Shown here: piece by piece, positions 2,649-39,500 of the stretch | How the letters are laid out: each line of letters starts with the position of its first letter | Numbering within the stretch: the first letter of the stretch is position 1 | Virus record (IMG/VR): IMGVR_UViG_3300025010_000044 | DNA: 64,000 nt | Source of the DNA: an uncultured virus (IMG/VR IMGVR_UViG_3300025010_000044) | Lineage: Duplodnaviria > Heunggongvirae > Uroviricota > Caudoviricetes | Strand: one strand, 5' to 3' | Notes under the pieces: generated by a model | The model's database searches: none | Told to the model about the DNA's origin: nothing | The model's input: only the letters and a program-made list of their open reading frames with translations | Position numbers and translations under genes: made by a program

Positions 2649-3677
2649 ATGCTTGTAAATATTGGTGATGTTATTATCCGCGAGGATAGAATAAGAAAAG
2701 ATTTTGGGGATATTTCGGAATTAGCTGAGGATATCCTGGTAAATGGTTTGATCAATCCGCCGGTTGTTACGCCGGAGAAGGTTTTACTTGCCGGCGAAAG
2801 AAGAATGATGGCAATGAAACAGCTTGGATATATGCAAGTGGAAGTAAGGATGCTTACAGTACGCGATTACGAACACCGGCTGATGATAGAAATTAGCGAG
2901 AACGAAAACCGGAAGAACTTCTCATTTACCGAAAGAATGGATTTAGCGCGAAGGCTTGAAGCGGTTGAACGGGAAAAGGCAAGAGAAAGAAAAGATGCGA
3001 ATTTGAAGAATTCTCCCGATGTGCCAACATTGGTACATCGAGAAGACGAAGAAGGAAGAACGAATGACAAAGTTGCAACTGCTATTGGTTTAGGTGGTAA
3101 AGAAACATATCGCAAAGCAAAAAAAGTGATTGAGAACGCTGATCCGGAGTTGATAAAAGCGCTTGATGAAAACCAACTGAGCATAAACGGCGCTTATAAA
3201 AAGCTGCAAGAAAGTTTAGCGGAAAAAGAAGAACAGCTATCGAGTAAGGACATAACAATCCAAAATTTGATGAAGAAAAAGGATGACAAAGAAGCCACAA
3301 AAGCGCTTGAACAAAAGCAAGAGGAATTGCGGAAGTTAAAGGGCGAATTAACAAAAGCTGAGACAGAGCTTAAAGGGTTAAGGGAAGTAAAAGAAAAGAA
3401 AGATGAACTTGAATCCCTCCACAAAGAAGTTGAAAAACTGAAAGAGCGCCAGAGCAAAGCCGTGCAAGAGTATAAGGAGATGGGAAAAATTTTCAGTTGG
3501 ATTGATAAAACAAAGGGGTTTATCGGGAATGAGATGTTACAGATACCAACGTTAATGTATTTGCCGGAATCACCAAGTAAAGTAGTAAAAGACGAAGTAA
3601 AGCATATCCTACAAGTTATAAGTGACTGGAGTTATGCAATGAGACAGAAATTTCAAATAGAGGAAGATGAGTTATGA
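2649..3677 (+). CDS. ParB-like nuclease-domain protein with HTH and coiled coil
   Basis: GDISELAEDI..NGLINPP..LLAGERR..EISENENRK. Confidence 0.85.
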   Translation: MLVNIGDVIIREDRIRKDFGDISELAEDILVNGLINPPVVTPEKVLLAGERRMMAMKQLGYMQVEVRMLTVRDYEHRLMIEISENENRKNFSFTERMDLARRLEAVEREKARERKDANLKNSPDVPTLVHREDEEGRTNDKVATAIGLGGKETYRKAKKVIENADPELIKALDENQLSINGAYKKLQESLAEKEEQLSSKDITIQNLMKKKDDKEATKALEQKQEELRKLKGELTKAETELKGLREVKEKKDELESLHKEVEKLKERQSKAVQEYKEMGKIFSWIDKTKGFIGNEMLQIPTLMYLPESPSKVVKDEVKHILQVISDWSYAMRQKFQIEEDEL

Positions 3678-4255
3678 ACGGTGATAACATGGCATTAATG
3701 CCAGCGTTAGATGTAGCGAATTTGCCGATGAACGTGCTAAAGGATTTAGCATTCAGTTTGCAAGGGGAATTAATGAAGCGGACAGTTGCGGATGTAGAGG
3801 AGTTTAAAGCAAAAACAGCCGATACAATAAACTCACAGCAGAATGAAATTGAAAAGTTAAAAAACAATTTGAACGCGCAAAGCGAGAAGGTGTTCTTTAT
3901 TCATGCAAGAAGCGCGGACGAAAAATATTTAACTATGCGAATGTTAGGGAACAGGAATCTTCCTCCGATAGCAAACAAGATGACGCGGCTATTGCAGTAT
4001 GCGGGGATATTGCAGATAGGGAAATCGATTCCTTACAGCAATGCCTTAGCCGGGAAAGAACCGATCGCGATAACGTACAAAATCTCCAACGCGCAAGGGT
4101 ATGAAGGGTTGGGCTACAAATTTCACGAAGCCCGAAGCTGGGAGATCATCCATAAAAAATTAAAGAAAGATGAGCTGTTCAACGGGTTTATGAACTGTTC
4201 TACCAAGGAAGAGCTAGATAAATACATTGGTAAATTACCGATAATATACAGATAA
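3674..4255 (+). CDS. Hypothetical phage DNA-binding or antirepressor-like protein
   Basis: Coupled to the ParB-like gene; coiled coil plus globular C-terminal domain. Confidence 0.45.
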   Translation: MNGDNMALMPALDVANLPMNVLKDLAFSLQGELMKRTVADVEEFKAKTADTINSQQNEIEKLKNNLNAQSEKVFFIHARSADEKYLTMRMLGNRNLPPIANKMTRLLQYAGILQIGKSIPYSNALAGKEPIAITYKISNAQGYEGLGYKFHEARSWEIIHKKLKKDELFNGFMNCSTKEELDKYIGKLPIIYR

Positions 4256-4457
4256 TAATAGGACCGGAAATAAAAATGTTAATGTATAGTTGCTTTTATA
4301 AATTAACTTTTATAGATTACATACGCAAATAATCAGAGTTTAATCAAATGAAAATAAATACCCTTGTTTTGGACGTGAATGGATTTCTTACCAAAGAACT
4401 CGATTATTTGCACACGCTAAAGCAAGGGTTTTTTAATTTATCTCAAAGGAGTTCAAG

Positions 4458-4910
4458 GTGAATAATCTAATATCAATCTTCGACACAATCCCGCGCGGGA
4501 TTTCCTTTGCTATAATAGCGAGGGAAGATAGACCCCATGGACGGGTTCCGGTAAATAGTTTTACCAGAATATTTGTTGAGAACAAACGGGAACGCTATAC
4601 CGAAAAATCTGAAATGGTATTGCAGCGATTCTGTAAGAACCTAAAAGATGAGGTTGACGGATTAACTTTTCAAAAACGGGTAGAAAAGAACGATCCATTT
4701 TTACCGGCGCAAGAAGTGAGGGAAGAACTTTCACACAAATTATGCGTAAGCGAACAAGCGCTAAGAGCATGGTGGAATCCTTGCGATAAGTCGGGGAACA
4801 AAATGGGCATTGGTGATCTGATAGCCTATACCGATAAAATGAAATCAACTTTTTTAATTGAAGCGTTACTAAATGATATAAAAGGATTGGTCCATGCCGG
4901 AAGTTGTTAA
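4458..4910 (+). CDS. Hypothetical protein, possible HTH regulator
   Basis: AAAGGAG RBS, GTG start; HTH-like LSHKLCVSEQALRAWW. Confidence 0.5.
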   Translation: MNNLISIFDTIPRGISFAIIAREDRPHGRVPVNSFTRIFVENKRERYTEKSEMVLQRFCKNLKDEVDGLTFQKRVEKNDPFLPAQEVREELSHKLCVSEQALRAWWNPCDKSGNKMGIGDLIAYTDKMKSTFLIEALLNDIKGLVHAGSC

Positions 4911-5259
4911 AGAAGACAAGCGGAAGAAAAAGCCAACGGTGTTGGAAGGCGGAAATCGTGTTGCGGTCTCCGAGTTGGAAGCTGCACATATCGTTGGATT
5001 AAAAGAGAGCGCTATTTTCAGACGAAAGTTTGTGCCTAAACTTATTCAGCCGAGTTATTACCCGGGAAGCAAGCGGCCGATGTACAATGTTTTTGAAGTT
5101 TTGGGATTGTTAGACAAAACAAAAGTAACGGAAGGTTATCAAGCACAAAAGAGAGCAAATGATGATCTGATTGAAAGAGTAAAAAGGATCACGATGGCGG
5201 GGAAGTTCAAAGTAGAAAGTAAAAAGTATCCGCCAGAGGGCGGATCAGCCATTGGCTGA
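4894..5259 (+). CDS. Putative excisionase-like or winged-helix DNA-binding protein
   Basis: SELEAAHIVGL...FRR...PMY pattern resembles Xis/MerR-like HTH. Confidence 0.4.
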   Translation: MPEVVKEDKRKKKPTVLEGGNRVAVSELEAAHIVGLKESAIFRRKFVPKLIQPSYYPGSKRPMYNVFEVLGLLDKTKVTEGYQAQKRANDDLIERVKRITMAGKFKVESKKYPPEGGSAIG

Positions 5260-5288
5260 GAAATTTAAATTCAAAGGAGTTCAAACAA

Positions 5289-5636
5289 ATGGAAAAAGTT
5301 CACATAAATGATGGCAGCAATAAGCCGATTTGCGGCAGTGAGGAGTTCACAAAATTAACGGGTGTAAAGGAATGCACGTCTTGCTTGGAGTGCCAAAAAT
5401 TACGCACGGAGGCATTGGCAAAGCTAAAACGGCTCCGCAGACTTAATGCTGATAGGGAGATAGTTTCAAACTATTTAAAAGGGGAAAATATAAGTGAGGA
5501 AGATCGAGAATCTTACGGAATCCGCTTAGAAGAGATAGAGGAGGAGACGAAGAAAAATCATCCACAATCAAACAACGAGGCATACATGATGAGTGAACTG
5601 AGTATGCCGATAACCGCAGAGGTAGAACATGTCTGA
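5289..5636 (+). CDS. Hypothetical Zn-binding protein
   Basis: H..C and CxxC motifs; strong RBS. Confidence 0.5.
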   Translation: MEKVHINDGSNKPICGSEEFTKLTGVKECTSCLECQKLRTEALAKLKRLRRLNADREIVSNYLKGENISEEDRESYGIRLEEIEEETKKNHPQSNNEAYMMSELSMPITAEVEHV

Positions 5637-6705
5637 CGTTAATAAAAGTTTACCGGTAATTCAGGACAATAACCAGCTTTCTGTTTTCTTGCGAGAAGTG
5701 GAAAAAGTGATGATCCCCTTGGTGCCGGAGATGTTGAATTTTGTAAAGCCGGAATTGAAACTTGGTTTTGAAAAGATAAGCGTAATAAAAGAGAGAGACG
5801 CATATTGGGTTGAGGGTGGGTACGCGCTTAAATTAACAAAGTTGAACGAAATAGCAGTAGCCGCCGGTATTCAAATTTCTTGCGGAAGGAACCCGGAAAA
5901 AACTTATGATGGAGACGGAAGGATTGCAAATGTAAAACATTACGTGCAGTGGACGTACCGGAACATTGACGGATCGACAAAACGAGGAGAAATAAGCGGT
6001 GAATACAATTATGCTGAGGATATTCAAAAATTCACTGCGAAGTGTGACAAATTTGATGCTAAGGGAAAATTAAAACGCAAAGCCGGTGAAATTGATTGGA
6101 ATAGCATAAACCAACGCCGGGCAAAAGCGGGGCAGCTAGCCGAAAGTAATGCCATTTACAGAGCAATAAATAAGGCATTGCCGAAGTTACGCGGTACTTA
6201 CACAGAAGCGGAACTTAATAAACCGTTCCTTGTGCCTTGTGTGATTGAGGATATTGCGGACATTCTGGCAAAACATCCCGATCTGGAGAATGAATACCTT
6301 CGAGCAAAGTTAGGTCTTGCCGGTATGCTGTATGCAGATCCGCAGCAGATTGAACAAACGAAAAATGAATTTAGACAAACTACTCCGGCTCCAATGTTTG
6401 AGGAAAAGCCAAAAGCTGAAAAGATTGAGGATGCAAAAGTGATAGAAGAAAAGCCGAAGGCAGCAGAAAGCAAGGTTGAAGACCCGGACGAAAAACTTTT
6501 CCCTCCCGGAATGGTTGATAAAGATGAGCGTGCGAAGTTTTATGCGGAGCAGTTTAAGGATTCACCGCAAGAAGAGAGAACGAAAGTAATTAATGATTTG
6601 ATTGCAAAGAAAAGGTTTGAACGGAAAAACAAAGCAACGAGCATCGATACTTACGCCGTAGCGAAGCAGATCGAATTTATTGAGATGCTGTGGAAACTTC
6701 CATAA
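5629..6705 (+). CDS. Phage protein, possibly a recombination or annealing protein
   Basis: Long ORF upstream of the SbcD/SbcC genes. Function inferred from context only. Confidence 0.45.
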   Translation: MSDVNKSLPVIQDNNQLSVFLREVEKVMIPLVPEMLNFVKPELKLGFEKISVIKERDAYWVEGGYALKLTKLNEIAVAAGIQISCGRNPEKTYDGDGRIANVKHYVQWTYRNIDGSTKRGEISGEYNYAEDIQKFTAKCDKFDAKGKLKRKAGEIDWNSINQRRAKAGQLAESNAIYRAINKALPKLRGTYTEAELNKPFLVPCVIEDIADILAKHPDLENEYLRAKLGLAGMLYADPQQIEQTKNEFRQTTPAPMFEEKPKAEKIEDAKVIEEKPKAAESKVEDPDEKLFPPGMVDKDERAKFYAEQFKDSPQEERTKVINDLIAKKRFERKNKATSIDTYAVAKQIEFIEMLWKLP

Positions 6706-6732
6706 TTAGGAATTGTCAATTAGGAATTAGGA

Positions 6733-6879
6733 ATGAAATGTTCGGTTTGCAATAGAGAGTTAAAGAATCCTAAAAGCGTAGAAAAGGGAATTGGTCCGGT
6801 TTGCGAAGGCAAAGCGAACGGCAAAAAAGTTAGAGCGAAAAAAGTAAAGTATAACAAAAAGCAATTGGAAATGTTTTAA
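6733..6879 (+). CDS. DUF6011-like Zn-finger protein (48 aa)
   Basis: CSVCNRELKNPKSVEKGIGPVC. Translated by hand; below the ORF-track cutoff. Confidence 0.7.
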   Translation: MKCSVCNRELKNPKSVEKGIGPVCEGKANGKKVRAKKVKYNKKQLEMF

Positions 6880-6891
6880 GAAGGAGTTTGT

Positions 6892-7272
6892 ATGAGTTCA
6901 AATAGAATAATTGAAGACCCATTCTATAAGATGAAATTTATTGTCTTTAGTATAAAAGATTTAAAAAATGTTGATGAGCAAACCCTATCGGCAATTAAAA
7001 AGCTTAGCGGATATGTTGCACTAAATAGGGGGAAAAGAGGGGCGGAACTCTACCCACAATATTTAACTATCAACCAAGACGAACCATATGCGGAAGAAGT
7101 ATTCGCGGTTATAAAAAGAGGGGAACAAAGCAAATCAAAAAGTGAGCTTATGTCAAATCTGGTTGAAACTTTAAAAATGGTTTATGATAAATATGCAGTG
7201 AAAGAAGGATTTTGGAGCCATGACCGGCAACAAATTCTCGAAGCAATTGCAAAGGCGGAGGGAATAAAATGA
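6892..7272 (+). CDS. Hypothetical phage protein
   Basis: AAGGAG RBS; YLTINQDEPYA motif; AIAKAEG C-terminus. Confidence 0.55.
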   Translation: MSSNRIIEDPFYKMKFIVFSIKDLKNVDEQTLSAIKKLSGYVALNRGKRGAELYPQYLTINQDEPYAEEVFAVIKRGEQSKSKSELMSNLVETLKMVYDKYAVKEGFWSHDRQQILEAIAKAEGIK

Positions 7273-8525
7273 AAAATCAACTTATAGGTTTATTTACCGC
7301 TGATTGGCATTTGGATAAAGACCCGAAAAGAAAAAGGAAAGCGTGTGAATCGCTTGACCAAATGGTGGAATATGTAAAAAACAATCATGTTGATTACATA
7401 GTTCATGGCGGAGATTTTTGGGAAACAAAACAAAACTTCGGCGAAAACAGCGGTGTTGAGTACGGTTTCCAATATCTAAAAGAATTGGCAAAGCATGTAA
7501 AAGCAATTATCATCAATAAGGGTAACAATAACCACGATTACGCCGGGAGTATTAGTCTTCTCCATCAATTGAGGGAGAACATTTTTGCTTACGAATACCC
7601 GGTTTCGCTTGCGCTGTACGATCACGTTAGTAATATACTTGGTGTTGATATTTTGCGTGATGAAGAAACCGGTTATGAAGAAGAACCGGAATTTATTGTA
7701 AACCTTATGCCTTATCCCACAAAGGGAATGATCGTTAGAGACATGAGCATTGATGATAATAATAAAGAGTTTGGAGAAGTGTTTGACGGATTAATGGATA
7801 TGTTCGGAATAACGAACAATAGATATAAATGTCCAAAAGCTTTTACCTTCCACGGTAACGTAAGAGGAAGCAGATTAAGCACAGGACAACCATTAACCGG
7901 GCAAGATATAATAATTTCCCCTCTATCATTACGGAAAGCCAAAGCCGATGTTTACGCATTTGGTCATATTCACAATTGGCAGGAGTTTGAGCCGGATATG
8001 TTTTACACCTCCTCTCTTTACAATTGCAATTTTGGGGAGACGGAACAGAAATATTTTATCGTTAGCAAATTCGATCAGACAGATGAAGGGGTAAAAGTTT
8101 CATCAGAGAAAATAAAGTTTAAGACAGTCCGGCCAATGGTAAATGTAACGGCGGAATTTATTAACGGCGAGTTTGTGATCAACCAGGAAGTGCCGGAGAA
8201 TGCTGAGGTAAAGATAAAGTATAAGATTGAAGAAGATTTGCAAGATCAAATTACCGCTGCAAAAAAGGAAGAGTTAAAGGCAAGGTTTGGGGCGGATGCC
8301 ATTCTTGAGGCTGACATTGTTCCTGTGCAGAGGGAAAGCCGCAGCGTAAAAATAATGGAGGCAAAAAATTTAGCTGAAGAATTTACCGAGTATTGCACAA
8401 TTACCGGAAGAGGTGAAGTGTTTAAGACAAACGGCGATGAAAAAATACTTAAACGCAGTTATCGTGAAAAGATTGAGTTGATTGAGCAAAATATTGCGCC
8501 GGTGGAAGTGCCGGAAGAGTTGTAG
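7269..8525 (+). CDS. sbcD: Mre11/SbcD-like metallophosphoesterase nuclease
   Basis: ADWH, GGD, GNNNHD, FHG, GHIH calcineurin-like motifs. Confidence 0.85.
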   Translation: MKNQLIGLFTADWHLDKDPKRKRKACESLDQMVEYVKNNHVDYIVHGGDFWETKQNFGENSGVEYGFQYLKELAKHVKAIIINKGNNNHDYAGSISLLHQLRENIFAYEYPVSLALYDHVSNILGVDILRDEETGYEEEPEFIVNLMPYPTKGMIVRDMSIDDNNKEFGEVFDGLMDMFGITNNRYKCPKAFTFHGNVRGSRLSTGQPLTGQDIIISPLSLRKAKADVYAFGHIHNWQEFEPDMFYTSSLYNCNFGETEQKYFIVSKFDQTDEGVKVSSEKIKFKTVRPMVNVTAEFINGEFVINQEVPENAEVKIKYKIEEDLQDQITAAKKEELKARFGADAILEADIVPVQRESRSVKIMEAKNLAEEFTEYCTITGRGEVFKTNGDEKILKRSYREKIELIEQNIAPVEVPEEL

Positions 8526-8565
8526 AATTAGTGGAAAGTAGAAAGTTAAAAGGAAGAGAAATAAG

Positions 8566-8886
8566 ATGGAAGAATTTGTAAGACATTTAAAATTTTTACA
8601 AGAATATTTCGATCTGGAAATGAACTACAGCACGAATGGATGGGAAGTTAAGGTAATACACTGGGGAGGATTGGTAGACGAGACACCTTATTTTGAAGTT
8701 GAAATGGATGAGCTGGATGACGCTATTAAACGTGCATATATTATCGGTTTAGAGATTATTGATGGTAAACACTTACAAAAGCGCAACATTAAAGCAGTAA
8801 TGGAGCAATTGGATATAACAGACGAAATATTTGATGAATTTGATAATGACGGAGATTTTGATGAATTGGATGAAGATGAAGTATAA
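8566..8886 (+). CDS. Hypothetical acidic protein
   Basis: ORF with acidic tail; its stop codon lies in the first GTATAAC box. Confidence 0.55.
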   Translation: MEEFVRHLKFLQEYFDLEMNYSTNGWEVKVIHWGGLVDETPYFEVEMDELDDAIKRAYIIGLEIIDGKHLQKRNIKAVMEQLDITDEIFDEFDNDGDFDELDEDEV

Positions 8887-8993
8887 CAGTGTGGAAACTT
8901 ATTTGCAGCGGCTTTAGGAACAACTTTAATGGACAATAAACTTAAACATATTAAACCATACCTCTTTGCAGTTATAAATTTTTTAGCGGTTGT

Positions 8994-9224
8994 ATGAGAA
9001 AAGTTGACATAAACATTTTCTTAGAATTTATATTCAAAAAAAGATTTTACAACGTACTGGACAATGATAAAAAACCGATTAAAATATTACAGATTAGTCG
9101 TGGTGTAGCAAGGTGCGTTTATGATGATGGTAGCAATTTAACTAGGTTGATACGGCGTGAGGATAAGATATTCCACATGCCACCATACTTGCTGGAACAA
9201 ATTCCCGATAAAAAAGATTTATAA
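8994..9224 (+). CDS. Cassette ORF 1, hypothetical
   Basis: Stop codon in TTATAAC; ATGA-coupled to a 22-aa leader at 8929-8997. Confidence 0.5.
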   Translation: MRKVDINIFLEFIFKKRFYNVLDNDKKPIKILQISRGVARCVYDDGSNLTRLIRREDKIFHMPPYLLEQIPDKKDL

Positions 9225-9262
9225 CGTAGTTGCAACTTAAAAGCTGCCAAGAATAAAAGAGA

Positions 9263-9679
9263 ATGAACTTAATTAATAAAATATCAAATAACAAAATGCC
9301 AAAAACAGATTTGCAGTCTTTTAGAGTTGTGAGTTATTTTGATTTTTGGCGGGAGTTAGACATGAGTTTGATACAATGTGATAATTGTGGTTGCGTGGAG
9401 AATACAGCGTGTACAATGATGACCGCTAAATGGACACCAAACGATTATGACTGGACTGGAATTGAAGATAGGAAAGGGATGAAACTTTGCTGTATTTGCC
9501 TACCCACTAAATATAGTGATGGGACGGAAGTAGAAAGAGCAGGCAAATGGCATGGCAGATTTGACAGAGTATTTTTAGAAAAAGGCAAGTGGAAAACGAA
9601 TAATGTTGGGAATCTTGAAAACATCGAAACTGGTGATACCAACTACAGTAAATATATATTAGCCAAAAAATCAAAATAA
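9263..9679 (+). CDS. Cassette ORF 2, Cys-rich hypothetical (CDNCGCVENTA; WHGRF)
   Basis: Start inside the attC-like loop, or ATG 9362 with GGGAG RBS; stop in AAATAAC. Confidence 0.6.
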   Translation: MNLINKISNNKMPKTDLQSFRVVSYFDFWRELDMSLIQCDNCGCVENTACTMMTAKWTPNDYDWTGIEDRKGMKLCCICLPTKYSDGTEVERAGKWHGRFDRVFLEKGKWKTNNVGNLENIETGDTNYSKYILAKKSK

Positions 9680-9815
9680 CGTAGTGGCAACTTAAAAGCA
9701 AAAACGAAGAAGGAATAAATTAAATGGAACAAATTAAAACAATAGCAAAACCCGAAACGATAAAAGACAGTTTTTGTCTTTTAGAATTGCGAGTTATAAA
9801 TTTTTTGGCGGGCAT

Positions 9816-10049
9816 ATGAAAGGTGTTGAAACTGGGTGGAGCGTTGAACGATATGTTTGCCCTTCGTGTAAACGGAAGGGGTTGTATTATGCTGGGAATT
9901 ATGGCGGATCAACCCCCTGGTTTTGTATGTATAGAAATTGTAAAAATAGACACCCAGACTTGCAAGATGTAATTGATGCAAACCCAATTTTATTAACTGA
10001 AAACCCCAAATGGAAACACTTTAAAAAGGTTAGCCAAAAAGATTTATAA
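9816..10049 (+). CDS. Cassette ORF 3, Zn-ribbon hypothetical
   Basis: CPSC...CMYRNC. ATGA-coupled to a 31-aa leader at 9724-9819. Confidence 0.55.
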   Translation: MKGVETGWSVERYVCPSCKRKGLYYAGNYGGSTPWFCMYRNCKNRHPDLQDVIDANPILLTENPKWKHFKKVSQKDL

Positions 10050-10099
10050 CGTAGTGGCGGCTTTGCTGATTGCGGAAACTAATTAAGAAAGGAAATATT

Positions 10100-10417
10100 A
10101 TGAAAACTAAAGAACAAATATTGTGTGACATTGTTGGGAGAATCCATGCAGAACTAAAAGATTCTGTGCGATATAACGATGCGTTGACGGCAATGGAACA
10201 ATATGCAAATCAGTTAGCAATTCAGCAAGAGCCGCGAGTTAGCCATGATTTTTGCGGACAATATGAAAAATTGATTGAGGTTTTAATAGACTTATTGTAC
10301 GAAGACCCGCACAATTGGAGTGCAAGACCTTGCCCAACTTGTAGAGTAATTACAACCATTGCGGGTAAACCGTTTGGTTGTGATAAGAAAAGAGAACTGA
10401 GCAAAAATGCTGGCTAA
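10100..10417 (+). CDS. Cassette ORF 4, hypothetical (CPTC)
   Basis: AAAGGA RBS and ATG inside the attC-like loop; stop in GGCTAAC. Confidence 0.55.
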   Translation: MKTKEQILCDIVGRIHAELKDSVRYNDALTAMEQYANQLAIQQEPRVSHDFCGQYEKLIEVLIDLLYEDPHNWSARPCPTCRVITTIAGKPFGCDKKRELSKNAG

Positions 10418-10446
10418 CTAATACTTAACCCGCAAGGAGAAAAAGA

Positions 10447-10719
10447 TTGGAATTTACTCGTTATTACGGTAAACATAAGAGGCAAAACGATTGCGTAATA
10501 CAAACTTCTGTATTACAAGAAAAAGGTAAAACTTTACAAATTAGAATTGATTCTGAACTTAACAACGTTCTTGAATCTTTAGCTAAAGAGTTAAACCAAA
10601 ATCCATCTAAAGTTGCAAGAGATATTTTAGAAGATTTTTTCTTAACAAAAAAATTATTGGAACAAAAAGAAGATGTTGAAGATTTTCTTAATCGGACAGA
10701 AAGTAAAAAAGATAACTAA
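10447..10719 (+). CDS. Ribbon-helix-helix DNA-binding protein
   Basis: TLQIRIDSELNNVLESLAKELNQNPSKVARDIL. Confidence 0.65.
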   Translation: MEFTRYYGKHKRQNDCVIQTSVLQEKGKTLQIRIDSELNNVLESLAKELNQNPSKVARDILEDFFLTKKLLEQKEDVEDFLNRTESKKDN

Positions 10720-12342
10720 ATGCCAAGATCATTAATTCCTTGGGAATATCCGCTGCGTGATTGGCAGCAGGACGCCAACGAAATAGTAATACGAAAAGTG
10801 AAAGCCAAAGAGCAGGATGCTTTGCTTGTAGCAACGCCGGCATCCGGTAAAACCCGAACGGCTTTGCGGTTTGCACACAAACTCTATTTTATGCACTACA
10901 TAAAAAGAATTGTTGCGGTGGTTCCAACAGAGCACTTAAAAAAGCAATGGGCTGAAGACGCGCATCTTTACGGAATTGATCTTGACCCAATGGTGGAGAA
11001 CCGTATTGGAAAAGAAGGAAGCGACTACCACGGAGTTGTGCTTACCTATGCGCAACTTGGTATGGACGCGGATATTCATAAACATTTTACTGATAGCACA
11101 AGTACCTTGGTAATATTGGATGAAATCCATCATGCGGGGGAAAGTAAAACATGGGGAGATGCACTAAGAACGGCTTTTGAGAATGCTTTTTTTAGATTAG
11201 CATTAAGTGGAACGCCATTTAGAAGAGATAATAATCCTATCCCTTTTGTGAAATATGTAAATGATGTTAGTGTTTCGGATTATGTTTATTCCTACCAGCA
11301 AGCAGTTGAGGATAATGTTTGCAGGGCGATATACTTTCCAGCTTATGATGGAATAATGACTTGGCAGACGGACGGAGTGACTTATAAGCATAATTTTGAA
11401 GAGCAGATCAATCAGGCAAGAGAAAGTGAAAGATTAAGAACCGCATTAGATCCGTTCGGTGAGTTTATGAAGCAATTCTTTCTTGACGCTGATAAAAAAT
11501 TAAATGAAATAAGGAGAGGCAGTCACCCGGATGCGGGAGGATTGGTCTTGGCGATCGATCAAGAGCATGCGGCGAGAATTAAGAAGATGATATTCGAACT
11601 TATCGGCGAATCTCCGGTAATAGCGGTGAGTGACGATAAGAATGCGAGCAAACATATTAAGGAGTACAAGCGAAGAAAAGATAAATGGTTGATTAGCGTT
11701 AAAATGGTTTCGGAAGGGGTTGACATCCCTCGTTTGCGTGTTGGGGTTTATGCAACAAATGTAGAGAGCGAATTATTCTTCAGACAGGTTACGGGAAGGT
11801 TTATAAGAGTATTGGCACATCTTAAAAGTCAGGACGCATATTTGTACATTCCTAAGCGGCACGAGCTGGTAAGATTTGCCAGAGAAATTGAACAGGAAAG
11901 AGATCATGCGCTTAATACTGCCAAAGAGAAATATGATAAAGATTTGTTCGGAAAAGAAATTGAACCGAGAGAGAAGGAGCAAAAGGATTTCAAAGTAATT
12001 TCAGCAGAAGTAACCGGCACGATGGAGATAAAAACAAATTTTACGGATAAGATTTCCACAATGTTTGGTTTGCCAAAAGCAAAAGCAGCGCAGATAGCAC
12101 AGAGCGTAGTACAGCAGCCCACTGAAGTGGAGATACCGGTATTTGAGAAGATAAAGACGCTTAGGAAAGAGATAAATGATTTAGCTATGGTTTATGCAAA
12201 GAATAGAGGAAACGGCACCGTGGATTGGCAAATAGGGCATAAGGACTGGATTAAAATAGGGGGAAGGAGTATTGAGCTTGAAACTTATCCGGAGTTAATG
12301 CGGAGGCGCAGATGGCTACAAAATAATTTGCATAAAAGTTAA
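10720..12342 (+). CDS. SF2 DEAD/DEAH-box helicase (ResIII-like)
   Basis: LRDWQ, ATPASGKT, DEIHH, SGTP, MVSEGVDIP, QVTGR. Confidence 0.9.
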   Translation: MPRSLIPWEYPLRDWQQDANEIVIRKVKAKEQDALLVATPASGKTRTALRFAHKLYFMHYIKRIVAVVPTEHLKKQWAEDAHLYGIDLDPMVENRIGKEGSDYHGVVLTYAQLGMDADIHKHFTDSTSTLVILDEIHHAGESKTWGDALRTAFENAFFRLALSGTPFRRDNNPIPFVKYVNDVSVSDYVYSYQQAVEDNVCRAIYFPAYDGIMTWQTDGVTYKHNFEEQINQARESERLRTALDPFGEFMKQFFLDADKKLNEIRRGSHPDAGGLVLAIDQEHAARIKKMIFELIGESPVIAVSDDKNASKHIKEYKRRKDKWLISVKMVSEGVDIPRLRVGVYATNVESELFFRQVTGRFIRVLAHLKSQDAYLYIPKRHELVRFAREIEQERDHALNTAKEKYDKDLFGKEIEPREKEQKDFKVISAEVTGTMEIKTNFTDKISTMFGLPKAKAAQIAQSVVQQPTEVEIPVFEKIKTLRKEINDLAMVYAKNRGNGTVDWQIGHKDWIKIGGRSIELETYPELMRRRRWLQNNLHKS

Positions 12343-12499
12343 TGTATGTATTGTTTTATAAAATAACATTTTTTAAGTTTGAGACAGAGATTGAGCAAAA
12401 TAAAAATTTTTCCCAACGGCAGTTTGACTTCCCTCGCATTAAAGCTCAATCTCTTAATGTGCAAACTGCCGTTCATTTTTATTTCAAAGGAGTTCTAAG

Positions 12500-15244
12500 A
12501 TGAGATTACTTTCATTAAAATTACGCGGTGCCATTGGCATACGGAAAAAATTAGGTTTAGAAGAAATTGAAATTGATTTTAGCCAATTTGGACCGGGATT
12601 AATAGCCATAACCGGAGACAACGGCTACGGCAAAACAACGATCATAGACAATTCACAACCATACAGAGAACTCCCCAGCAAACCAGGAACGTTAGAAGAA
12701 CACTTCGAATTAAAAAACTCATACCGAATACTAAAATTTTCATTTGATGAAAACATCTACGAATCAAAACTAATGATTGACGCGCTTACCGGAAAAAGTG
12801 AAGTTTACCTATACAAAGATGGAATAGCCTTGAACGATGGACTGAAAGGAAGTTACGATAGAGAAGTGACTAAACTTTTCGGTTCACAAAAATTATTTTT
12901 TACTTCTGTTTTTGCAGCGCAGGCAAGCAAGGGAATATTTTCTTTACAAGAAGGAGACTTGCGCAAATTATTTTATGAAATCCTTGGCATAAACGAATAC
13001 AGCCCGCGCGAAGAAAATGCAAAAAAGTATCTTCAAAAAGAGCAAAATAAATTAGAAGTTTTGGAACGTGAACTAAAAACCCTTACTGAAGAAAAAACAG
13101 AGTGCAATACTTCAAAAGAGGATATCGAAAAGAAGATTTATGAGCGGGAAGAAACAACTTCATCTAAAAAAGATACCGAAGCGAAAATAAAGTTGGTTAG
13201 GGAGGAAATAGAGAACTGCAATATTCGCATAGCAGAACTTAATCTTAAAATTGAGCAGCAGGAAGAAATTACTGTAAAGATAAATGAACTTGTGGAAGAT
13301 GTTGAATTCCTTGACGAGAAAAAAGAACTTGAACTTCAAGAGATTGAAGGACAGAAAACGGCGGAGATAAACACATTCAACACTTCGAACGAATTTGATA
13401 AACACATTAAGGAACTTGACACAAAGAAGAACTATCTTAATGAAGAAGCAGAGAAAGAGAAAACGGGAATCACTCAGCAGAATTTTGATTATGAAGAAGA
13501 AATTAAAAATAATGAAATTCAAAAAATATATTTTGAGACGAAGATAACCCGGAGTAAGACGATACTCGGGAACCGGGGAACGATAGCGTTAAATCTTGAC
13601 GAAAAGAAAAAACGGAGCGAAGAAGCCGCAGAATTGCTTGCAAAAGAGAAAGAACATCTTTTAGAAATAGGAAAATTGCAAGAGAGGAAAGAAGGGGAAG
13701 AAAAACTTTTACAAGTTTTGCGCGAAAGTTACGCAAATACGGATAAAGTCAAATCTCAGAAAGATCATCAACTTACTACGGTAAATGAGTTAATTGCATC
13801 TTTAGAGGAATTAAAAAAAACCGGATTAGACCGGTTAAAGGAAGAAATCTCAACAATTGATAAAGTGCCATGCAGCGAAGTTGTAGGACGGGGTTGTATG
13901 TTCCTTACAAGAGCGATGGAAAGCAAGGATACGCTGAAAGATGTTGAGAATGATTATGATGCTAAAATAGTCGGTAAGGAAGAAGAGCGCGATGCAATAT
14001 TTTGGGAAATTGAAAACACTGAAAAGTTTTTGGATGAGGCTGATGAGGAAATAAAAGCCAAAGAGAAAGAGATCAAAGAGAATTTTACCGATCAAATAGC
14101 ATTGATAAATGAAGACGTGAACGTATTGCGTGTGAAAATAAAGGAAGTTGCGGGAAAGTTAGCCGAACTTGCAAAAACCAATTGGGAAGCGCTTGATAAA
14201 GAACTTGCTGAAGCAGAAAAGAACGCCGAGTTATGGGAAAGTGAAATTAAGAACATTAATCAGACAAGTGAAGATAAACGCAACAATATTAAGCATTTGC
14301 AAGAAAGAGTTGTTAACATACAAGAAAGGCTAACAAATAACTTACAAGATGTTGAAAATCAAATACTTACCTATAAACAGTTATTGGAAAAAGAAAAGGG
14401 TACGATCTTAAATTTCTTTTTGGAGAAGAGAAATAGCACGGCGGCTAAGTATGATGAGAAGAAAGAAAATTTGAATAAAGATTTAGCTGCAAACAAATTA
14501 AAACTTGATGAGACGCTAAAACCGGCGAAGATACATTGCGAACTAACTTTACGGGCAAAAAGGGAAGAACTTGAAGAAGCGGAAATTTTACTTAAAGAAT
14601 CGGATAAAAAAATAAACGATCTCCAAATAGAGGTTGTTGAACTTAATGAAAAATTGGTGAGAAAGCAGTTTTTGGAAGATCAGATAAACAGCAAGAATGG
14701 GGAAAGATTGTTTATTGAGGAGGAAATAAAGCAATGGGGGATTATAAGAGAAAGTATGTCAAAGACTGGAATTCCGGTTCTTAAGTTGGAAATCTCCGGT
14801 TCTGAAATATCGAGGTTAACAAATGAATCTTTGAGCCACTACGAAAACAAATTTCGAATAGTTTTTGAAACCACAACTTTTACCAAGGATAAGAAAAAGC
14901 AGATAGAAGTTTTCAAAATAAAAGTTTTGGATGAAGATGGAATTTGTAACATCATGTACAAAAGCGGCGGGGAGAAAGTTGAAGTTGAAACGGCACTACA
15001 ACTTGCAATTGCTCATTTTAAGAGGACACAGGGAGCAATAAAAGCCGATACAGGCTATTTGGATGAGAGCGATGGACCATTGAGTTTAAAAAATGCACAA
15101 CGTTATTTTAAGGTGATTGAAGAAGCGCATAAACGAAGCGGGGTTTACAATACGATAGTTATAACTCACCGCCCGGAGTTGATAGAACAAATTAACCAAC
15201 GAATTGAGCTGTATGATGGATATTTTGAGATAATTAGGAATTAG
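12500..15244 (+). CDS. sbcC: Rad50/SbcC-like SMC ATPase
   Basis: GDNGYGKT, long coiled coils, hook-like C...C, SGGE, LDE, ITH. Confidence 0.9.
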   Translation: MRLLSLKLRGAIGIRKKLGLEEIEIDFSQFGPGLIAITGDNGYGKTTIIDNSQPYRELPSKPGTLEEHFELKNSYRILKFSFDENIYESKLMIDALTGKSEVYLYKDGIALNDGLKGSYDREVTKLFGSQKLFFTSVFAAQASKGIFSLQEGDLRKLFYEILGINEYSPREENAKKYLQKEQNKLEVLERELKTLTEEKTECNTSKEDIEKKIYEREETTSSKKDTEAKIKLVREEIENCNIRIAELNLKIEQQEEITVKINELVEDVEFLDEKKELELQEIEGQKTAEINTFNTSNEFDKHIKELDTKKNYLNEEAEKEKTGITQQNFDYEEEIKNNEIQKIYFETKITRSKTILGNRGTIALNLDEKKKRSEEAAELLAKEKEHLLEIGKLQERKEGEEKLLQVLRESYANTDKVKSQKDHQLTTVNELIASLEELKKTGLDRLKEEISTIDKVPCSEVVGRGCMFLTRAMESKDTLKDVENDYDAKIVGKEEERDAIFWEIENTEKFLDEADEEIKAKEKEIKENFTDQIALINEDVNVLRVKIKEVAGKLAELAKTNWEALDKELAEAEKNAELWESEIKNINQTSEDKRNNIKHLQERVVNIQERLTNNLQDVENQILTYKQLLEKEKGTILNFFLEKRNSTAAKYDEKKENLNKDLAANKLKLDETLKPAKIHCELTLRAKREELEEAEILLKESDKKINDLQIEVVELNEKLVRKQFLEDQINSKNGERLFIEEEIKQWGIIRESMSKTGIPVLKLEISGSEISRLTNESLSHYENKFRIVFETTTFTKDKKKQIEVFKIKVLDEDGICNIMYKSGGEKVEVETALQLAIAHFKRTQGAIKADTGYLDESDGPLSLKNAQRYFKVIEEAHKRSGVYNTIVITHRPELIEQINQRIELYDGYFEIIRN

Positions 15245-24862: not shown

Positions 24863-25190
24863 CGGACAAATTAAGATGAGAGAGAAGCGGATTTGTGAAT
24901 ATCCGCCGTGTAATAACGAGGTAACTTCTCCAAACAAAGCGGTAACACATTGCTGTTGTGAATGCGGGTGCGCTCACCGATTGTTGAAGGTGAAGAACTG
25001 TAAACAATGCGGAGGGGGAATTGATAGGAAGGGATTTATCTGTAAAAAGTGTTTTAGGGAAAATGATGAAGCGCAGCATAAAAAGGATAATGCAAAAAGA
25101 GGGTGGAGAAAGAAATCTGATTTTGAGAAGAAGTATGAAATCCCCTTACGGCATGACATAGTTGCGTTGGCGTATGGATGGGCGAGTTAA
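24852..25190 (+). CDS. Cys-rich Zn-finger protein
   Basis: Multiple CxxC motifs. Confidence 0.55.
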   Translation: MIINGQIKMREKRICEYPPCNNEVTSPNKAVTHCCCECGCAHRLLKVKNCKQCGGGIDRKGFICKKCFRENDEAQHKKDNAKRGWRKKSDFEKKYEIPLRHDIVALAYGWAS

Positions 25191-25191
25191 T

Positions 25192-26610
25192 ATGCTTGTT
25201 TTAATTGATTTGTTTTCCGGCATCGGCGGATTTAGTTTAGCGGCTGAAAGAGAAGGGATAGAAACGCTTCTCTTTTGCGAAATTGATAAATACTGCCAAA
25301 AGGTTTTAGCAAAAAACTTTCCCGAAGTGTTAATAAACGGCGACATAAAAACATTAACAAAAGAAATTATCTTAAAGGAAATTGAGAGAAGATATGGCAA
25401 ATACAACGGAACAATTGAATTTATTCTTACGGGCGGATTCCCTTGCCAGCCTTTCAGCATCGCCGGGAAAAGAAAAGGCAGTGAAGATGACAGAGCCTTA
25501 TTCCCCCAGATGCTTAGAGTTATTAGAGAAACAAGACCAAAGTGGATTGTTGCGGAGAATGTTGGTGGAATCCTTAGTATCCATGACGGAGAATATTTCG
25601 AGGAGATTTGTACACAATTGGAAGGTGAAGGTTACTCGGTACAATCGTTTATTATTCCAGCTTCAGCCGTTAATGCCCCGCATAAAAGAAACAGAGTTTG
25701 GATTATCGCTTATGCTAAAAACTCCTTCAACGGTGGAAACGGAAGGGGGGATAATGGAGATACGACCGGGAGCGAACGCACACTACAAATTGAGGAATCA
25801 AATAAACCATTTTGGCAAAATGATGTTAAAAACGCCGAGCAGTTTCGATGCGGTGGCAAAGAGCGGAAAGAAGAACCCAAAGAGCGGAAAGAAGAACCCA
25901 AAGAGCGGGGATTCGGGAAGTTTAGCGCAAGAGATGATGCAAGGTTTTCCGACAAAGATGTTGCCAACTCCGAAGGCGGGAAGACCGGATCAAGCGACAA
26001 CTTTTGCAGCGGGGAACCCGACACTTGCGAAAGTAATAGAGGAATTTTTATTACCAACGCCAAGAGCAGGGAAAATGACGGACGAAAACGAGGAACGTTG
26101 GACGAAGAGACAGAAGGAAGGGAAAGTATCAACGCCGCCGTTAAGTTTAGCGATAAAGATGCTTCCCACACCGCAAGCAAGGGATTACAAGGGTGCGGAC
26201 ACGAATCCGGACACGAAAAGATTTTCGATGAAGTCGGAACTGAATACAACGATAGCATTGATTCCAACCATAACAAGCGGTATGGTAACAATGGAAGATT
26301 TTGTGCAAGCGAAATACCACAGTTCGAAGAGACCGAAATACAAGGATGCACTTCTACCAACTCCCACAACCCCACGCCCGCACGACAACGAGGAAACGGC
26401 GGGAAAATTTTATCAATCTCAGAACCAAAAGGATTTAACAGCGATTGGGAAGAATCCTGGTATGAAGTTGCAACCCGCTTTTGTAGAGTGGATGATGGGG
26501 TATCCCATCGGGTGGACAGACTTAAAGGATTAGGTAACGCTATTGTGCCGAAGATAGCGCAAATAATTTATAAAGTGATAAAAAGTATAGAAGAAAATTA
26601 TAAATGTTAA
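25192..26610 (+). CDS. C5-cytosine DNA methyltransferase, alpha subunit (motifs I-VIII and X)
   Basis: DLFSGIGG, GFPCQ, ENV, HKRNRVW, RLKGLGNAIVP. Confidence 0.9.
   Translation: MLVLIDLFSGIGGFSLAAEREGIETLLFCEIDKYCQKVLAKNFPEVLINGDIKTLTKEIILKEIERRYGKYNGTIEFILTGGFPCQPFSIAGKRKGSEDDRALFPQMLRVIRETRPKWIVAENVGGILSIHDGEYFEEICTQLEGEGYSVQSFIIPASAVNAPHKRNRVWIIAYAKNSFNGGNGRGDNGDTTGSERTLQIEESNKPFWQNDVKNAEQFRCGGKERKEEPKERKEEPKERGFGKFSARDDARFSDKDVANSEGGKTGSSDNFCSGEPDTCESNRGIFITNAKSRENDGRKRGTLDEETEGRESINAAVKFSDKDASHTASKGLQGCGHESGHEKIFDEVGTEYNDSIDSNHNKRYGNNGRFCASEIPQFEETEIQGCTSTNSHNPTPARQRGNGGKILSISEPKGFNSDWEESWYEVATRFCRVDDGVSHRVDRLKGLGNAIVPKIAQIIYKVIKSIEENYKC
25394..26533 (+). CDS. Nested +1-frame beta subunit of the C5 MTase (LPTP repeats plus motif IX)
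   Basis: About 380 open codons inside the alpha gene; seven L(P/K)T(P/I) repeats; C-terminal LQPAFVEWMMGYPIGWTD. Confidence 0.75.
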   Translation: MANTTEQLNLFLRADSLASLSASPGKEKAVKMTEPYSPRCLELLEKQDQSGLLRRMLVESLVSMTENISRRFVHNWKVKVTRYNRLLFQLQPLMPRIKETEFGLSLMLKTPSTVETEGGIMEIRPGANAHYKLRNQINHFGKMMLKTPSSFDAVAKSGKKNPKSGKKNPKSGDSGSLAQEMMQGFPTKMLPTPKAGRPDQATTFAAGNPTLAKVIEEFLLPTPRAGKMTDENEERWTKRQKEGKVSTPPLSLAIKMLPTPQARDYKGADTNPDTKRFSMKSELNTTIALIPTITSGMVTMEDFVQAKYHSSKRPKYKDALLPTPTTPRPHDNEETAGKFYQSQNQKDLTAIGKNPGMKLQPAFVEWMMGYPIGWTDLKD

Positions 26611-28977: not shown

Positions 28978-29320
28978 CGGCGACATATTGTTTTTGCGGA
29001 TAAAGAATGTAGCGTTACAGAATCCGCAGCGGGATGAGGAGTTTAAGGATTTGGTGAGAGAGCAAATACCCGGAAGCGAATTCCATCATGTATTTACGAG
29101 TACGGTAGGGATGAAGAGCACGGATTTATTAGGTGTAGCGGTAAGACCGGAAGAGCACAATAAAAACCAAACGAACCGTGATTGGCTGATTGAGCAGATA
29201 CCGGGAGCGATAAGAAATTTAATAATGTACGTGGTTAAACTGAAGAAACAAATTAATCAACTAAAAAAGGAGCTAAGTGATGAGCAAAGTGATGAGCAAA
29301 GTAACAAATCCGTTGGGTGA
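28967..29320 (+). CDS. Hypothetical protein (degenerate HNH/Ref-like)
   Basis: HHVF...KSTD...PEEH. Confidence 0.45.
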   Translation: MKSDGDILFLRIKNVALQNPQRDEEFKDLVREQIPGSEFHHVFTSTVGMKSTDLLGVAVRPEEHNKNQTNRDWLIEQIPGAIRNLIMYVVKLKKQINQLKKELSDEQSDEQSNKSVG

Positions 29321-36554: not shown

Positions 36555-39500
36555 ATGTTTTTATATAAATTACCGGATTATGAGGGGGGATTTGTTACTA
36601 AGTCTATTGAGTGTAACTGCATTGTTACGCGCGATGATGCAGGGCATTTACTGAATAGTAAACCGGTAAATTGTGTAAAAAAGGGAATGAACACAAATTT
36701 TGGAAAGGTTGTGGATTATTCGAAGAATTTTGTAATTCTTAAAAAGGGGAGTGAGCTTAAAAGGTTAAAAAGGGAAGAGCTAAATAATGTTTTGTTAAAG
36801 AGTTTGGACCAACACGAAGCGGTGCCGGAAGATAAAGAAGAGATGAAAGTATCGGGGAAGTTTGAAACGATTGCCGGGAAAGTATTGGTGAAGAGTGAGA
36901 GAGAAATTATTAGGGATGTATTAACTGATCCGGACAGAGTATTGAGAAAGGGAAAGATAGTTACCTTTATTAAAACGATAAACGGAAAAGAGGTTGAGGC
37001 GAAGGTTGAAGGAAAAGGGATTTTCAATAATACGTTGATGTTAAAAGGAATTACAGAAACGAATTTAACAATTTCAAAAAGACTTTTGTTTAAGGGAGTT
37101 GCGGTAGCTTTTAAAACTCCGAAAGTGTTTAATATTAATCAGTCGGCAGTCAGCAGTGGGCAGTCAGCAGGAGGTGGAACGGCATGGAACGCAAAGGGAG
37201 GAATGAAGCCAAACCACAAATATCTTGAACGTAAACCGGCGAAGAATGGAGACGGATATATTTATCTGTATGAACTTCCTTCCGGTAAAAAGGAATGGAG
37301 AGATGAAGCCGGAAAATCTGTTGAAGGAGAAAGCGCGAAAGGCAGCGCGGATTATCAGTTAGAAGATTTTAAGGTAGGTGATGTAGTTAGACAAGATAAT
37401 AAACTTGGCCGGATAACGGAAACCACAACAAATATGCTTGCGGTAAATTTTGGCGGGGAAATGAAAGTGATCAACAAGAAAGAGCATGTTGAAAAGGTTA
37501 AGCAGCATCAACTGATGAAGGAAGGAGACACGATACAGTATGAGGGGAATGATGCAAAGATATTGAGGATAACGGGCAAAGCGGCATTAATAAACACGGC
37601 AGATAATAAGCTGAAGGTGATCAATCTTGAAAAGCAGTTGGAGAAATACGAACCGCAATCCGCCAAAGGCGGAGGAGAGGGCAGATTAAACAAGTATAGC
37701 GATGTTTACCAGGGTGAAGCAGAGCGAAGAGTAGGTCAAGGAGGAGCGGATAATTACAATATCAGTTATGAAGAGCAGCCGGGGTATAAAGATTTTGTTA
37801 GCGCGGCACAGAAAACGGGATTTGGACGAAAGAACGATCTTGAAATGGTAAAGCGCGTTGAAACAGAAAACGGACTTAGAACGGTAAGATGGAATTACAA
37901 CCCGGAGGATCAGAATATTAGTTTTATGGTTGACGGAAAAGAAGATTATACTATGAACTTTATGGGGAAGAAGTACAAAATTAGGGATATTACGGATGAC
38001 GGGTACAGTTTGGAAGACGCAGAAACCAAGGAACGGGGATTGTTCCTTTCTCACAAAGATTATAATAATGATTTGAAACAACAAAGAGACGAAGAGAGAA
38101 AGAATGTTATAGTTGAAAGATCGGGAGGGGTGAATGGAATTGAAACGGTAAGAGAACCGGCGCGAACATTTAGTTTTAAGCCGGAATATACGGAAGAGGA
38201 ACGGGCAAGATTTGAGAAGCGGGGAGGAAGCAGACCGAGCAGATGGACGCGAAGAAAAGATGAGCCTTTGCAAAGCGAAGAGGAGAAGAAACGATTAACC
38301 GAATTGCAATCTGAAAGGGATAAAAAGAATAAGGAAGTTTTAGGGACAAAAGATTTTGCCGATTTTGAAAAGTTGCATAAGGAGCGGGGTTTTGAAATTG
38401 GGGCAAATAGATTTCACGCGAGCAAAGAAATTGAAGCGGGAGGAAGAACGTTTAGGATAAAGAGTGAGTTTAAACCGGAAAAGATGAGCTGGCAGACTTC
38501 AATTGATGGACCTGTTAAGAAATTACAGTTGGGAGAAAAGCGTTTACCTATTACGGATATTTCAAAAGATAAAGTTTTCTACCATGAAGGGGGAGATGAA
38601 AAAAGTATAACGTTTGATGAGTTGAAAACGATTAACGGGAAAGGTTTGTTTGAGCCGACAAAAGAGAGTAAGGGAATTATAAGTAATTTAGACCCGGTGA
38701 AGATTTATTTTGGTAACGATGATAAGGATGTAACGAGCGGAAGTTATGAGATAGTTGAAGCTGATGAAATAATTGCATCGCATAAAACGGATGGAACGCC
38801 GAACAAAGATTACACAATATCAGACGCGCAGAATAGAGACCGCAGCACCCCGCAAAGTATAGCACAAATAAATAAGATAGCAACGAATCCGAATTTTGAC
38901 TTTTTAAGCGACAGTAAGACCGCCCAGGACGGCGCACCTATTGTTGACGAAGATTATAACGTAATTGCGGGGAACGGGCGAGCATTGGGGGTGCAACTTC
39001 ATTATGGACAAATGGGGAATAAAAACGGAAGTGAGAAAAAACAAAATTTAAGTGCAAAAGATGCGGATAAGAAAATTTTCGATTTGATGAAGCGGATAAT
39101 GCCGCATAGAGAAGATACGCAAGAATCCGCTATAAAATATGCCAAAAATAATCTTGGAGGGGGTAGAAGTGATGTTCTTGTTAAAGAGGGAAAATTAAGT
39201 GCAGATGAATCAAAATTTGTTAGTGAATATGCGAATGGAGATTTTGCAGAGAATAATTTATCTATCGCATTAAATAATAAAAGTGAGAAATACCGAAGTG
39301 ATCTTTTAAAGAACGCTGAAAAGTATGGTTTTAGCCGCGATGATGTTGAGAAGATGAAACAGCCGGTATTGGTAAGGCGAACGAATGTTGATAAAAAGGA
39401 AGCGCAACGATTAGGAGCGATAAGCAATACTTCTCAAATGCTTGCTACAGAGGAACGGGAAGCAGCAAAGGGAAAGGCAACGAGGATTGATGACGCAACG

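Follow-up and report, generated by a model that had tools for sequence, protein, structure and literature searches.

The locus described here is a run of four small phage genes, each preceded by an attC-like palindrome with an ATG in its central loop, and it raises the question of whether such recombination sites supply translation starts and, if they do, to which cassette each start belongs. The first-pass annotation had proposed that every loop provides a start or a leader peptide for the gene downstream, and that the site thereby serves to translate whichever cassette is inserted. The window, by which we mean the whole 64-kb stretch that was analysed, is tailed-phage sequence, with PHROGs matches among its 79 open reading frames (ORFs) to ParB-like, SbcD-like, helicase, SbcC-like, terminase, portal and major head proteins. 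The SbcD-like gene and the helicase flank the array, and all of these genes are on the + strand (Table 1). The array is found at 100% identity in the nearest record, G001 (65.9 kb, 73% complete), and an independent metagenome contig is 100% identical to window positions 4233-12555. Searches of the window gave no Rfam match and no tRNA.

Table 1. Features of the cassette array and its neighbours (window positions; cassette limits hold if the crossover is AA/C; end complementarity refers to the flanks of the cassette).
Feature	Position	Strand	Evidence or score
SbcD-like gene	7269-8525	+	PHROGs match
Phage gene, 106 aa, left of the array, not a cassette	8566-8886	+	ends with the TAA of the left-most R box
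Site 1, degenerate attC-like; R boxes retained, 3' arm without its inner stem	8881-8977	+	stem pairing, alignment gap
Leader ORF 1, 22 aa, MDNKLKHIKPYLFAVINFLAVV, ATGA overlap with ORF1	8929-8997	+	SD -4.2
ORF1, 76 aa, no family; cassette 1 is 8887-9224	8994-9224	+	end complementarity 10
Site 2, attC-type hairpin; extrahelical T 9317, G 9324; bottom strand is the + strand	9219-9339	+	15/15 Watson-Crick pairs
ATG in the site 2 loop, reads in frame into ORF2 (138-aa long form), without SD	9263-9265	+	SD -0.7
ORF2, 105 aa, Cys-rich phage protein, PHROG 11861; cassette 2 is 9225-9679	9362-9679	+	end complementarity 13
Site 3, attC-type hairpin; extrahelical T 9777, G 9784	9674-9799	+	14/15 pairs
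Leader ORF 3, 31 aa, ends RVINFLAGI, ATGA overlap with ORF3	9724-9819	+	SD AAGGA, -5.7
ORF3, 77 aa, two-CxxC-type small protein; cassette 3 is 9680-10049	9816-10049	+	end complementarity 11
Site 4, attC-type hairpin; extrahelical T 10222, G 10229	10044-10244	+	15/15 pairs
ORF4, 105 aa, loop-encoded N-terminus and small phage domain; cassette 4 is 10050-10417	10100-10417	+	end complementarity 12; SD of ATG 10100, -5.6
attI-like simple site, GGTTAAG-TATTA-G/TTAGCC, no hairpin, closes the array	10412-10430	-	shape, position
Helicase	10720-12342	+	PHROGs match

Elsewhere in the window, a repeat of about 53 nt, 85% identical between its copies at 5211-5263 and 55709-55760, lies within two unrelated genes 50 kb apart and holds two small GC-rich hairpins; it may be a miniature mobile element or one of the REP-like kind. 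At 25162-26610 and 25382-26533 two long ORFs of the + strand overlap in different frames and both match DNA methyltransferase families, in a nested or frameshifted arrangement, and two further ORFs are very long, namely 44535-51062 (2175 aa, with DarB-like and methyltransferase matches) and 36555-42059 (1834 aa).

At all four sites, inverted R boxes (YAAC ... GTTR) flank an imperfect palindrome. Both cores are present in each of them (AAC at 8885, 9223, 9678 and 10048; GTT at 8971, 9333, 9793 and 10238, respectively) and the box-to-box lengths of sites 1 to 4 are 97, 121, 126 and 201 bp. The great length of site 4 had been ascribed to coding sequence in its loop, and this was borne out, as ORF4 has its first 46 residues encoded there. 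Stem pairs were counted in one fixed register around an unpaired T and an unpaired G. While sites 2 to 4 are fully or almost fully paired in this register, site 1 forms 5 of 15 pairs with its own arm and 10 of 15 with the right arm of site 2, and its right arm shows a gap when aligned. The term attC-like is supported, although site 1 is not an intact hairpin. Site 1, which is the farthest from the attI-like site, is probably the oldest one and no longer mobile. A site of another phage, unrelated in sequence (site A of locus L004), gave 15 of 15 pairs in the same register, and the changes between stems are compensatory, with cross-pairing among site 2, site 4 and L004 site A yielding just 3-6 of 15 pairs. 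L004 site C misfits the register (2/15).

The spacing T-6 nt-G-8 nt-GTT of sites 2 to 4 is that of the aadA7 bottom strand, as given in Table S3 of Qi et al. (2023). Classical attC sites such as aadA7 and VCR, as described in the accessible part of Bouvier et al. (2009; PMC2727003), likewise have R boxes of the RYYYAAC/GTTRRRY kind, a variable terminal loop, a stop codon within the site, extrahelical G and T 6 nt apart with the G 8 nt from GTT, and a G after AAC. The 5' arm, measured from AAC to the G position, is 12 nt long in the window and 9 nt in aadA7, and the canonical R'-L' spacing was not found. Five attC sites located beside canonical IntI genes in the phylum sample described below have an 11-nt 5' arm and the same 3' arm as the window sites, and for this reason we regard the 12-nt arm as a variant spacing and not as a different object. 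Folding energy alone does not single out the sites (z-scores from +1.8 to -2.8, not significant for sites 1 to 3). The three intact sites are close together, within 1.1 kb, and reach the threshold of two attC sites that defines a CALIN (PMC9024848). Judged by pairing and spacing, sites 2 to 4 are genuine attC-type hairpins.

The array departs from classical cassettes in the orientation of its genes. In attC sites the extrahelical G and T set the choice of the recombining strand, and a G comes after the AAC of R' (Bouvier et al., 2009, in the part available). In sites 2 to 4 all these bases are on the + strand, which carries all four genes of the array, whereas in the classical layout the attC lies 3' of its gene on the top strand. 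Moreover, cassette 4 ends with GGCTAAC (10412-10418) and no hairpin lies behind it. Read on the minus strand, this end is a simple site whose pattern, GTTA-N7-GTTA, occurs on that strand of the window only at 10412-10430. Its shape is that of the attI of a complete chromosomal integron (L034), and similar TAA-N5/6-GTT sites are found in four others (L027, L036, L038 and L042); shape and position therefore fit an attI-like identity. Past this site there is a weak match to an Arc-like repressor and then the helicase, with no intI beside it. With the coding strand as the recombining ("bottom") strand and an attI-like site at the right end, the genes appear to be inverted relative to their attC sites, and the whole can be read as a minus-strand integron whose genes are antisense.

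The flanks of each cassette are complementary over about 20 nt, as compared to 7 nt in classical attC, and every cassette scores best with its own end (Table 1; null distribution with mean -1.4 and sd 3.0, P(>=10) = 5e-4). For the end of the gene that precedes site 1 (8566-8886), the 3 kb upstream hold no complementary GTT partner, the best score being 3 as compared to 10-13 for true cassettes. By the established attC mechanism, the crossover would fall at AA/C on the + strand. Because polarity is inverted, each loop would belong to the gene after it; we infer this from the anatomy of the array, as no window cassette was found with other neighbours. The + strand is G-rich here; if this skew stems from replication, that strand would serve as template for the lagging strand. 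Strand placement has been linked to excision (Loot et al., 2017, PMC5371416, in the portion consulted).

A contig of 819 bases (depth 81) from run X4, which may be the source of the window DNA, bears on the right end of the array. It ends at 10455, shares positions 10414-10455 with two differences and departs immediately left of CTAAC, as would be expected of another cassette joined at the same attI. A second joint in this run, 9812-10030, was considered as an excision product and rejected: one side is of 21 nt, and the joint probably represents a different cassette that shares these end arms.

We compared the array with 30 loci from 301 genomes sampled in the phylum to which a Bacteroidia genome belongs; complete integrons have been reported in Chlorobi and Ignavibacteriae (PMC9024848). 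The chromosomal integrons (L027, L034, L036, L038 and L042; L056-L075) resemble the array in their long attC of about 120-200 bp, the lengthened 5' arm and an attI of the TAA-N5/6-GTT form. The arms of site 4 resemble attC sites of the complete integrons L036 and L038, and the first cassette of L036 begins with the same 11 bases as cassette 4 in minus-strand reading. The host arrays differ in that an integrase is present and gene polarity is mostly classical (25 of 27 decided cases); among the five complete integrons the first cassette is inverted in one (L034). We also noticed that in many genomes of the sampled phylum (L021 and L056-L075) the recombinase matches TIGR02249 only in two pieces, with E values of about 1e-30 to 1e-40 that are below the cut-off, so that an intI profile cut-off would miss them; such recombinases often precede, in the same direction, an attI-like WTA-N7-GTT and arrays of attC sites of about 130 bp.

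The polarity difference was also seen in 15 phage and 30 chromosomal sites, hand-picked from the output of a looser detector with isolated or overlapping matches omitted. An open frame follows the site on the bottom strand in 9 of the 15 phage sites (1 opposite, 5 unclear), which come from three phages and are not independent, and in 2 of the 30 chromosomal sites (25 opposite, 3 unclear). A strict 12/8 detector found 2 sites in 20 chromosomal regions, one of which looks real, and scored site 3 of the window below its threshold.

As to the starts, all the reading frames that had been described from the loop ATGs (8929, 9263, 9724 and 10100) were reproduced, namely the two leader peptides that end in an ATGA overlap with ATG 8994 (stop at 8995-8997) and with ATG 9816, and the two frames that read through the right arm into the ORF (138 aa from ATG 9263 and 105 aa from ATG 10100). 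The same is true for the stop of the upstream gene, which is the TAA of TAAC in five of five cases (8566-8886 and ORF1 to ORF4); overlap of a stop codon with attC is ordinary, being seen in most resistance cassettes according to the excerpted text of PMC11511950.

The phage of the window uses SD starts. The median anti-SD energy is -5.7 at 59 gene starts and -2.1 at 1235 background ATGs, and 80% of the former as compared to 21% of the latter score -4 or lower. Against this background, gene 4 very likely starts within its loop. Both its in-frame ATGs (10100 and 10193) lie within site 4 and none follows the hairpin, and ATG 10100, which has an SD (-5.6), is predicted to be open (0.84). An in-frame TTG at 10271 (SD -3.2) is a weaker alternative that could yield a short ORF4; some relatives consist of the bare domain and little more (P0045, P0142 and P0147). 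The domain, with the motif DPHxWSxRPCxTC...FGC, has 398 relatives at E<=0.001, which mostly cover residues ~56-100, and the closest ones (P0002, P0003 and P0047, known as protein only) have unrelated N-termini and an arm-like peptide at the same junction.

Gene 2, by contrast with what had been proposed for all loops, clearly uses its own start. ATG 9362 is preceded by the SD GGGAG (-6.9), positions 1-103 of PHROG 11861 align to long-form residues 34-136, and the 9362 position is where 32 of 37 homologues begin, with MSL(F/Y)QC; of the remaining ones, two have unrelated extensions and three lack the N-terminus, and the extension from ATG 9263 is absent. ATG 9263, whose frame relative to GTT differs from that of the other three loop ATGs, is therefore probably not the working start of ORF2.

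At sites 1 and 3 leader-aided starts are plausible. ORF1, for which no family was found (best score in the atlas search 0.82), has at ATG 8994 a weak SD (-2.3) in a region predicted to be paired. The loop start ATG 9724 is predicted to be unpaired with probability 0.84-0.87, as compared to 0.28-0.35 for ATG 9816; the latter has an SD of its own (-5.3), and the single homologue of ORF3, P0190, starts at about the same Met.

These observations must be weighed against the possibility that, with inverted cassettes correctly recognised, a family of A-rich loops has given rise to ATG 9263 and to both leader peptides (sites 1 and 3) as by-products, ORF4 being the only gene with a loop start. We consider this unlikely, and it is the alternative that survives best. 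Shuffled loops often contain an ATG somewhere (P = 0.42, 0.56, 0.58 and 0.97 for sites 1 to 4), 20% and 11% of background ATGs have an SD score as good as that of loops 1 and 3, respectively, and an ATGA gives a stop in the -1 frame automatically for any gene that starts in this way. Small ORFs in attC sites have indeed been called anecdotal (PMC11511950, in the text at hand). What argues against by-products is that all four loops of the window yield a fused or coupled frame, an outcome that is rarer in shuffled loops (P = 0.10, 0.10, 0.25 and 0.18; product 4e-4, under a criterion chosen post hoc, after the data had been seen), together with the poor start of ORF1 and the openness of the start in loop 3.

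In the hand-picked set, 7 of 15 phage sites have a loop ATG that is open through GTT and in the GTT frame. Among host bottom strands the count is 2 of 30 (p=0.003), and the host top strands, with 6 of 30, are much closer to the phage sites; in any frame the figures are 10 of 15 and 10 of 30 (p=0.056). The enrichment of loop ATGs in phage sites is real but modest, and is not a rule.

Homologous loops are informative on this point. L004 site B, the sole independent homologue of any window site, is 89% identical to site 2 over 120 nt, which is exactly the extent of the site; no homologues of loops 1, 3 and 4 were found. Had the loop been kept for translation as first proposed, its ATG and coupling would be expected to persist together. 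The ATG is in fact kept in three of three sites (site 2, L004 B and L004 C), while fusion or ATGA coupling is not shared, and the outcomes are three: an in-frame fusion at site 2, a 39-aa peptide that overruns an ATGG start at L004 B, where the loop is one base shorter, the frame another and ATGA coupling absent, and a dead end of 7 codons ahead of the gene at L004 C. Their loop SD scores are -0.7, -0.7 and -0.4, and those of the genes' own starts -6.9, -7.4 and -8.7, as the by-product explanation would have it. L004 site D has no loop ATG.

Some features of L004 are worth recording separately. A fourth attC site with perfect 12/8 geometry is present (4692-4813, with 4212-4693) its cassette genes face the classical way and its loop holds no ATG that reads through GTT; the phage also has a gene with a T9SS-sorting domain. 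Beside the array, at 2744-3037 on the minus strand, a tyrosine-recombinase C-terminus of about 30 residues (LGH...YTH; TIGR02249, E 1e-4) is apparently the remnant of a deleted integrase, located on the attI side and pointing away from the array. We give little weight to this fragment because it fits classical intI geometry and not the co-oriented geometry of L021 and L064.

It is very unlikely that the repeats have ceased to be recombination substrates or never served as such, i.e. that they are relic cassettes fixed in the phage, or mRNA structures, in which starts arose afterwards. In favour of this view are the decay of site 1, the weak folding z-scores and the absence of a recombinase from the sequences available: no tyrosine recombinase was found among the 79 window ORFs with PHROGs, no integron integrase in the 64-kb window or in G001 and no PF00589 match in G001, which is 73% complete. 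A contig of 89,565 bases is on record for ORF4, so that about 25 kb of the phage may lie outside. Furthermore, four runs gave no variant array, although contigs drop rare variants and the uncovered parts of X5, X7 and X11 are uninformative, and neither the same cassette with other neighbours nor an empty site was found in the viral scans and the runs. Against it stand the three intact stems with exact extrahelical spacing, the intact cassette-end complementarity and an intact attI-like site that in another contig is joined at the R box to other DNA.

The searches for further arrays gave little. Most viral scans for the site pattern were blank, and their one true match was L004. A scan of whole-genome contigs gave three matches that were rejected as chance (two intragenic and one intergenic without a matching arm). 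The nine matches in metagenomes were L013, i.e. the phage of the window, L015, which is the same as L004, and seven chance matches, three of them inside an ABC-transporter gene and the other four recognised by similarity to those. No viral loci were found for ORF4, ORF3 and P0190. Against cultured phages, the array gave four short blastn matches only, and ORF4 none with tblastn. By eye, no attC-like site was seen in the loci of the ORF4 alignment (L018 and L019) or in those of ORF2 (L001-L003), which indicates that these domains also occur outside cassettes.

Also very unlikely is classical polarity, with each site following its gene and acting as a general expression module for the next cassette inserted: it would account for near-identical loops that precede unrelated genes (site 2 and L004 B), for downstream ATGs that start at the third base of a GTT-frame codon (window sites 1 to 3, L004 B and C) and for the precedent of short ORFs in classical attC that aid the next cassette (PMC8876359, in part), but it is contradicted by the coding-strand position of the extrahelical bases and of the G after AAC, by the attI-like site without hairpin after cassette 4, by the absence of a cassette end on the gene before site 1 and by the failure of homologous loops to keep frame and overlap. 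The proposal that a site expresses any inserted cassette is thus not borne out by the anatomy of the array, because a loop goes with the cassette of the gene downstream of it.

We therefore favour the reading, with a probability of roughly 0.6, of an integrase-less cassette array within a phage early operon, made up of an attI and four attC-bounded cassettes, each with its gene inverted relative to attC. The mobile unit would consist of the attC with its loop, the gene and the stop TAA, and the hairpin would be the 5' leader of the gene, so that a loop start would travel with its own gene. A host IntI, or a recombinase encoded outside the window, would insert new cassettes at the right end, and all cassettes would be transcribed from the phage operon on the left. 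As the hairpin would sit between the gene and the upstream stop, some cassettes may have placed an SD and an ATG in the open loop: cassette 4 would use its loop start as an in-frame fusion, cassettes 3 and 1 would probably do so via leader peptides ending in ATGA, and cassette 2 would rely on the SD that follows its hairpin. Loop starts are a solution reached cassette by cassette as a consequence of inverted polarity, and not a universal module.

Several elements of this picture are already published. Qi et al. (2023; PMC9892861) reported, in the part of the paper accessible to us, 17 phage CALINs, in which attC clusters occur within phage gene blocks, as they do here, and without intI, of which none was found in the window or in G001, and recombination of five of six phage sites with IntI1; attC1 of the Polaribacter phage P12002L, which by our reading has an asymmetry similar to that of the window sites, did not recombine. 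For P12002L the same part mentions just "divergent directions"; inverted genes, starts in the loop or an attI at the end are not described there. The window array is closed by an attI-like site. In P12002L the bottom strand of attC1 is the coding strand of the flanking genes, and the annotated gp37 starts within a hairpin and reads through GTT, which means that a cultured phage also has the layout of the window. Of the "attC2" published for this phage, the 3' part occurs twice (29225-29240 and 37251-37266); the first copy, examined in its context, ends a run of inverted cassettes and looks attI-type rather than like a hairpin.

Short ORFs in attC (Jacquier et al., 2009; PMC8876359) and ORF-11 in attI1 (Hanau-Bercot et al., 2002; PMC8876359, PMC11511950) are described, in the portions seen of these reviews, as promoting translation of the next cassette, and are similar to the loop ORFs in that a small ORF across the recombination site couples translation downstream. 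They are on the top strand and belong to the platform or to the previous cassette, whereas the window loop ORFs are on the bottom strand, 5' of a gene of the same cassette, and can be the N-terminus of that gene itself. Small ORFs in attC that aid the next gene, stops inside attC and phage CALINs are therefore known, and the new element is the inverted polarity, by which a loop becomes part of the gene it precedes. The literature searched, mostly outside subscription journals, yielded no description of phage cassettes that are inverted or start in the loop.

Taken as a whole, and tentatively, at somewhat less than even odds, phages of FCB-group bacteria may run a mirror-image cassette pool of their own, moved by a borrowed host IntI at an attI kept by the phage. 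If so, the attC hairpin would be the 5' leader, and often an N-terminal coding part, of its own gene; cassettes would be self-starting units able to work in any phage operon, and loops swapped onto different domains would give new fusion proteins. In a host integron such cassettes would be silent antisense, because the recombining strand is the coding strand. The pool would provide a site-specific route to the mosaic blocks of small uncharacterised genes in phage early regions and would account for the many such proteins with variable N-termini joined to a domain at Val, and in these phages gene callers and integron finders could mis-assign starts and cassette borders.
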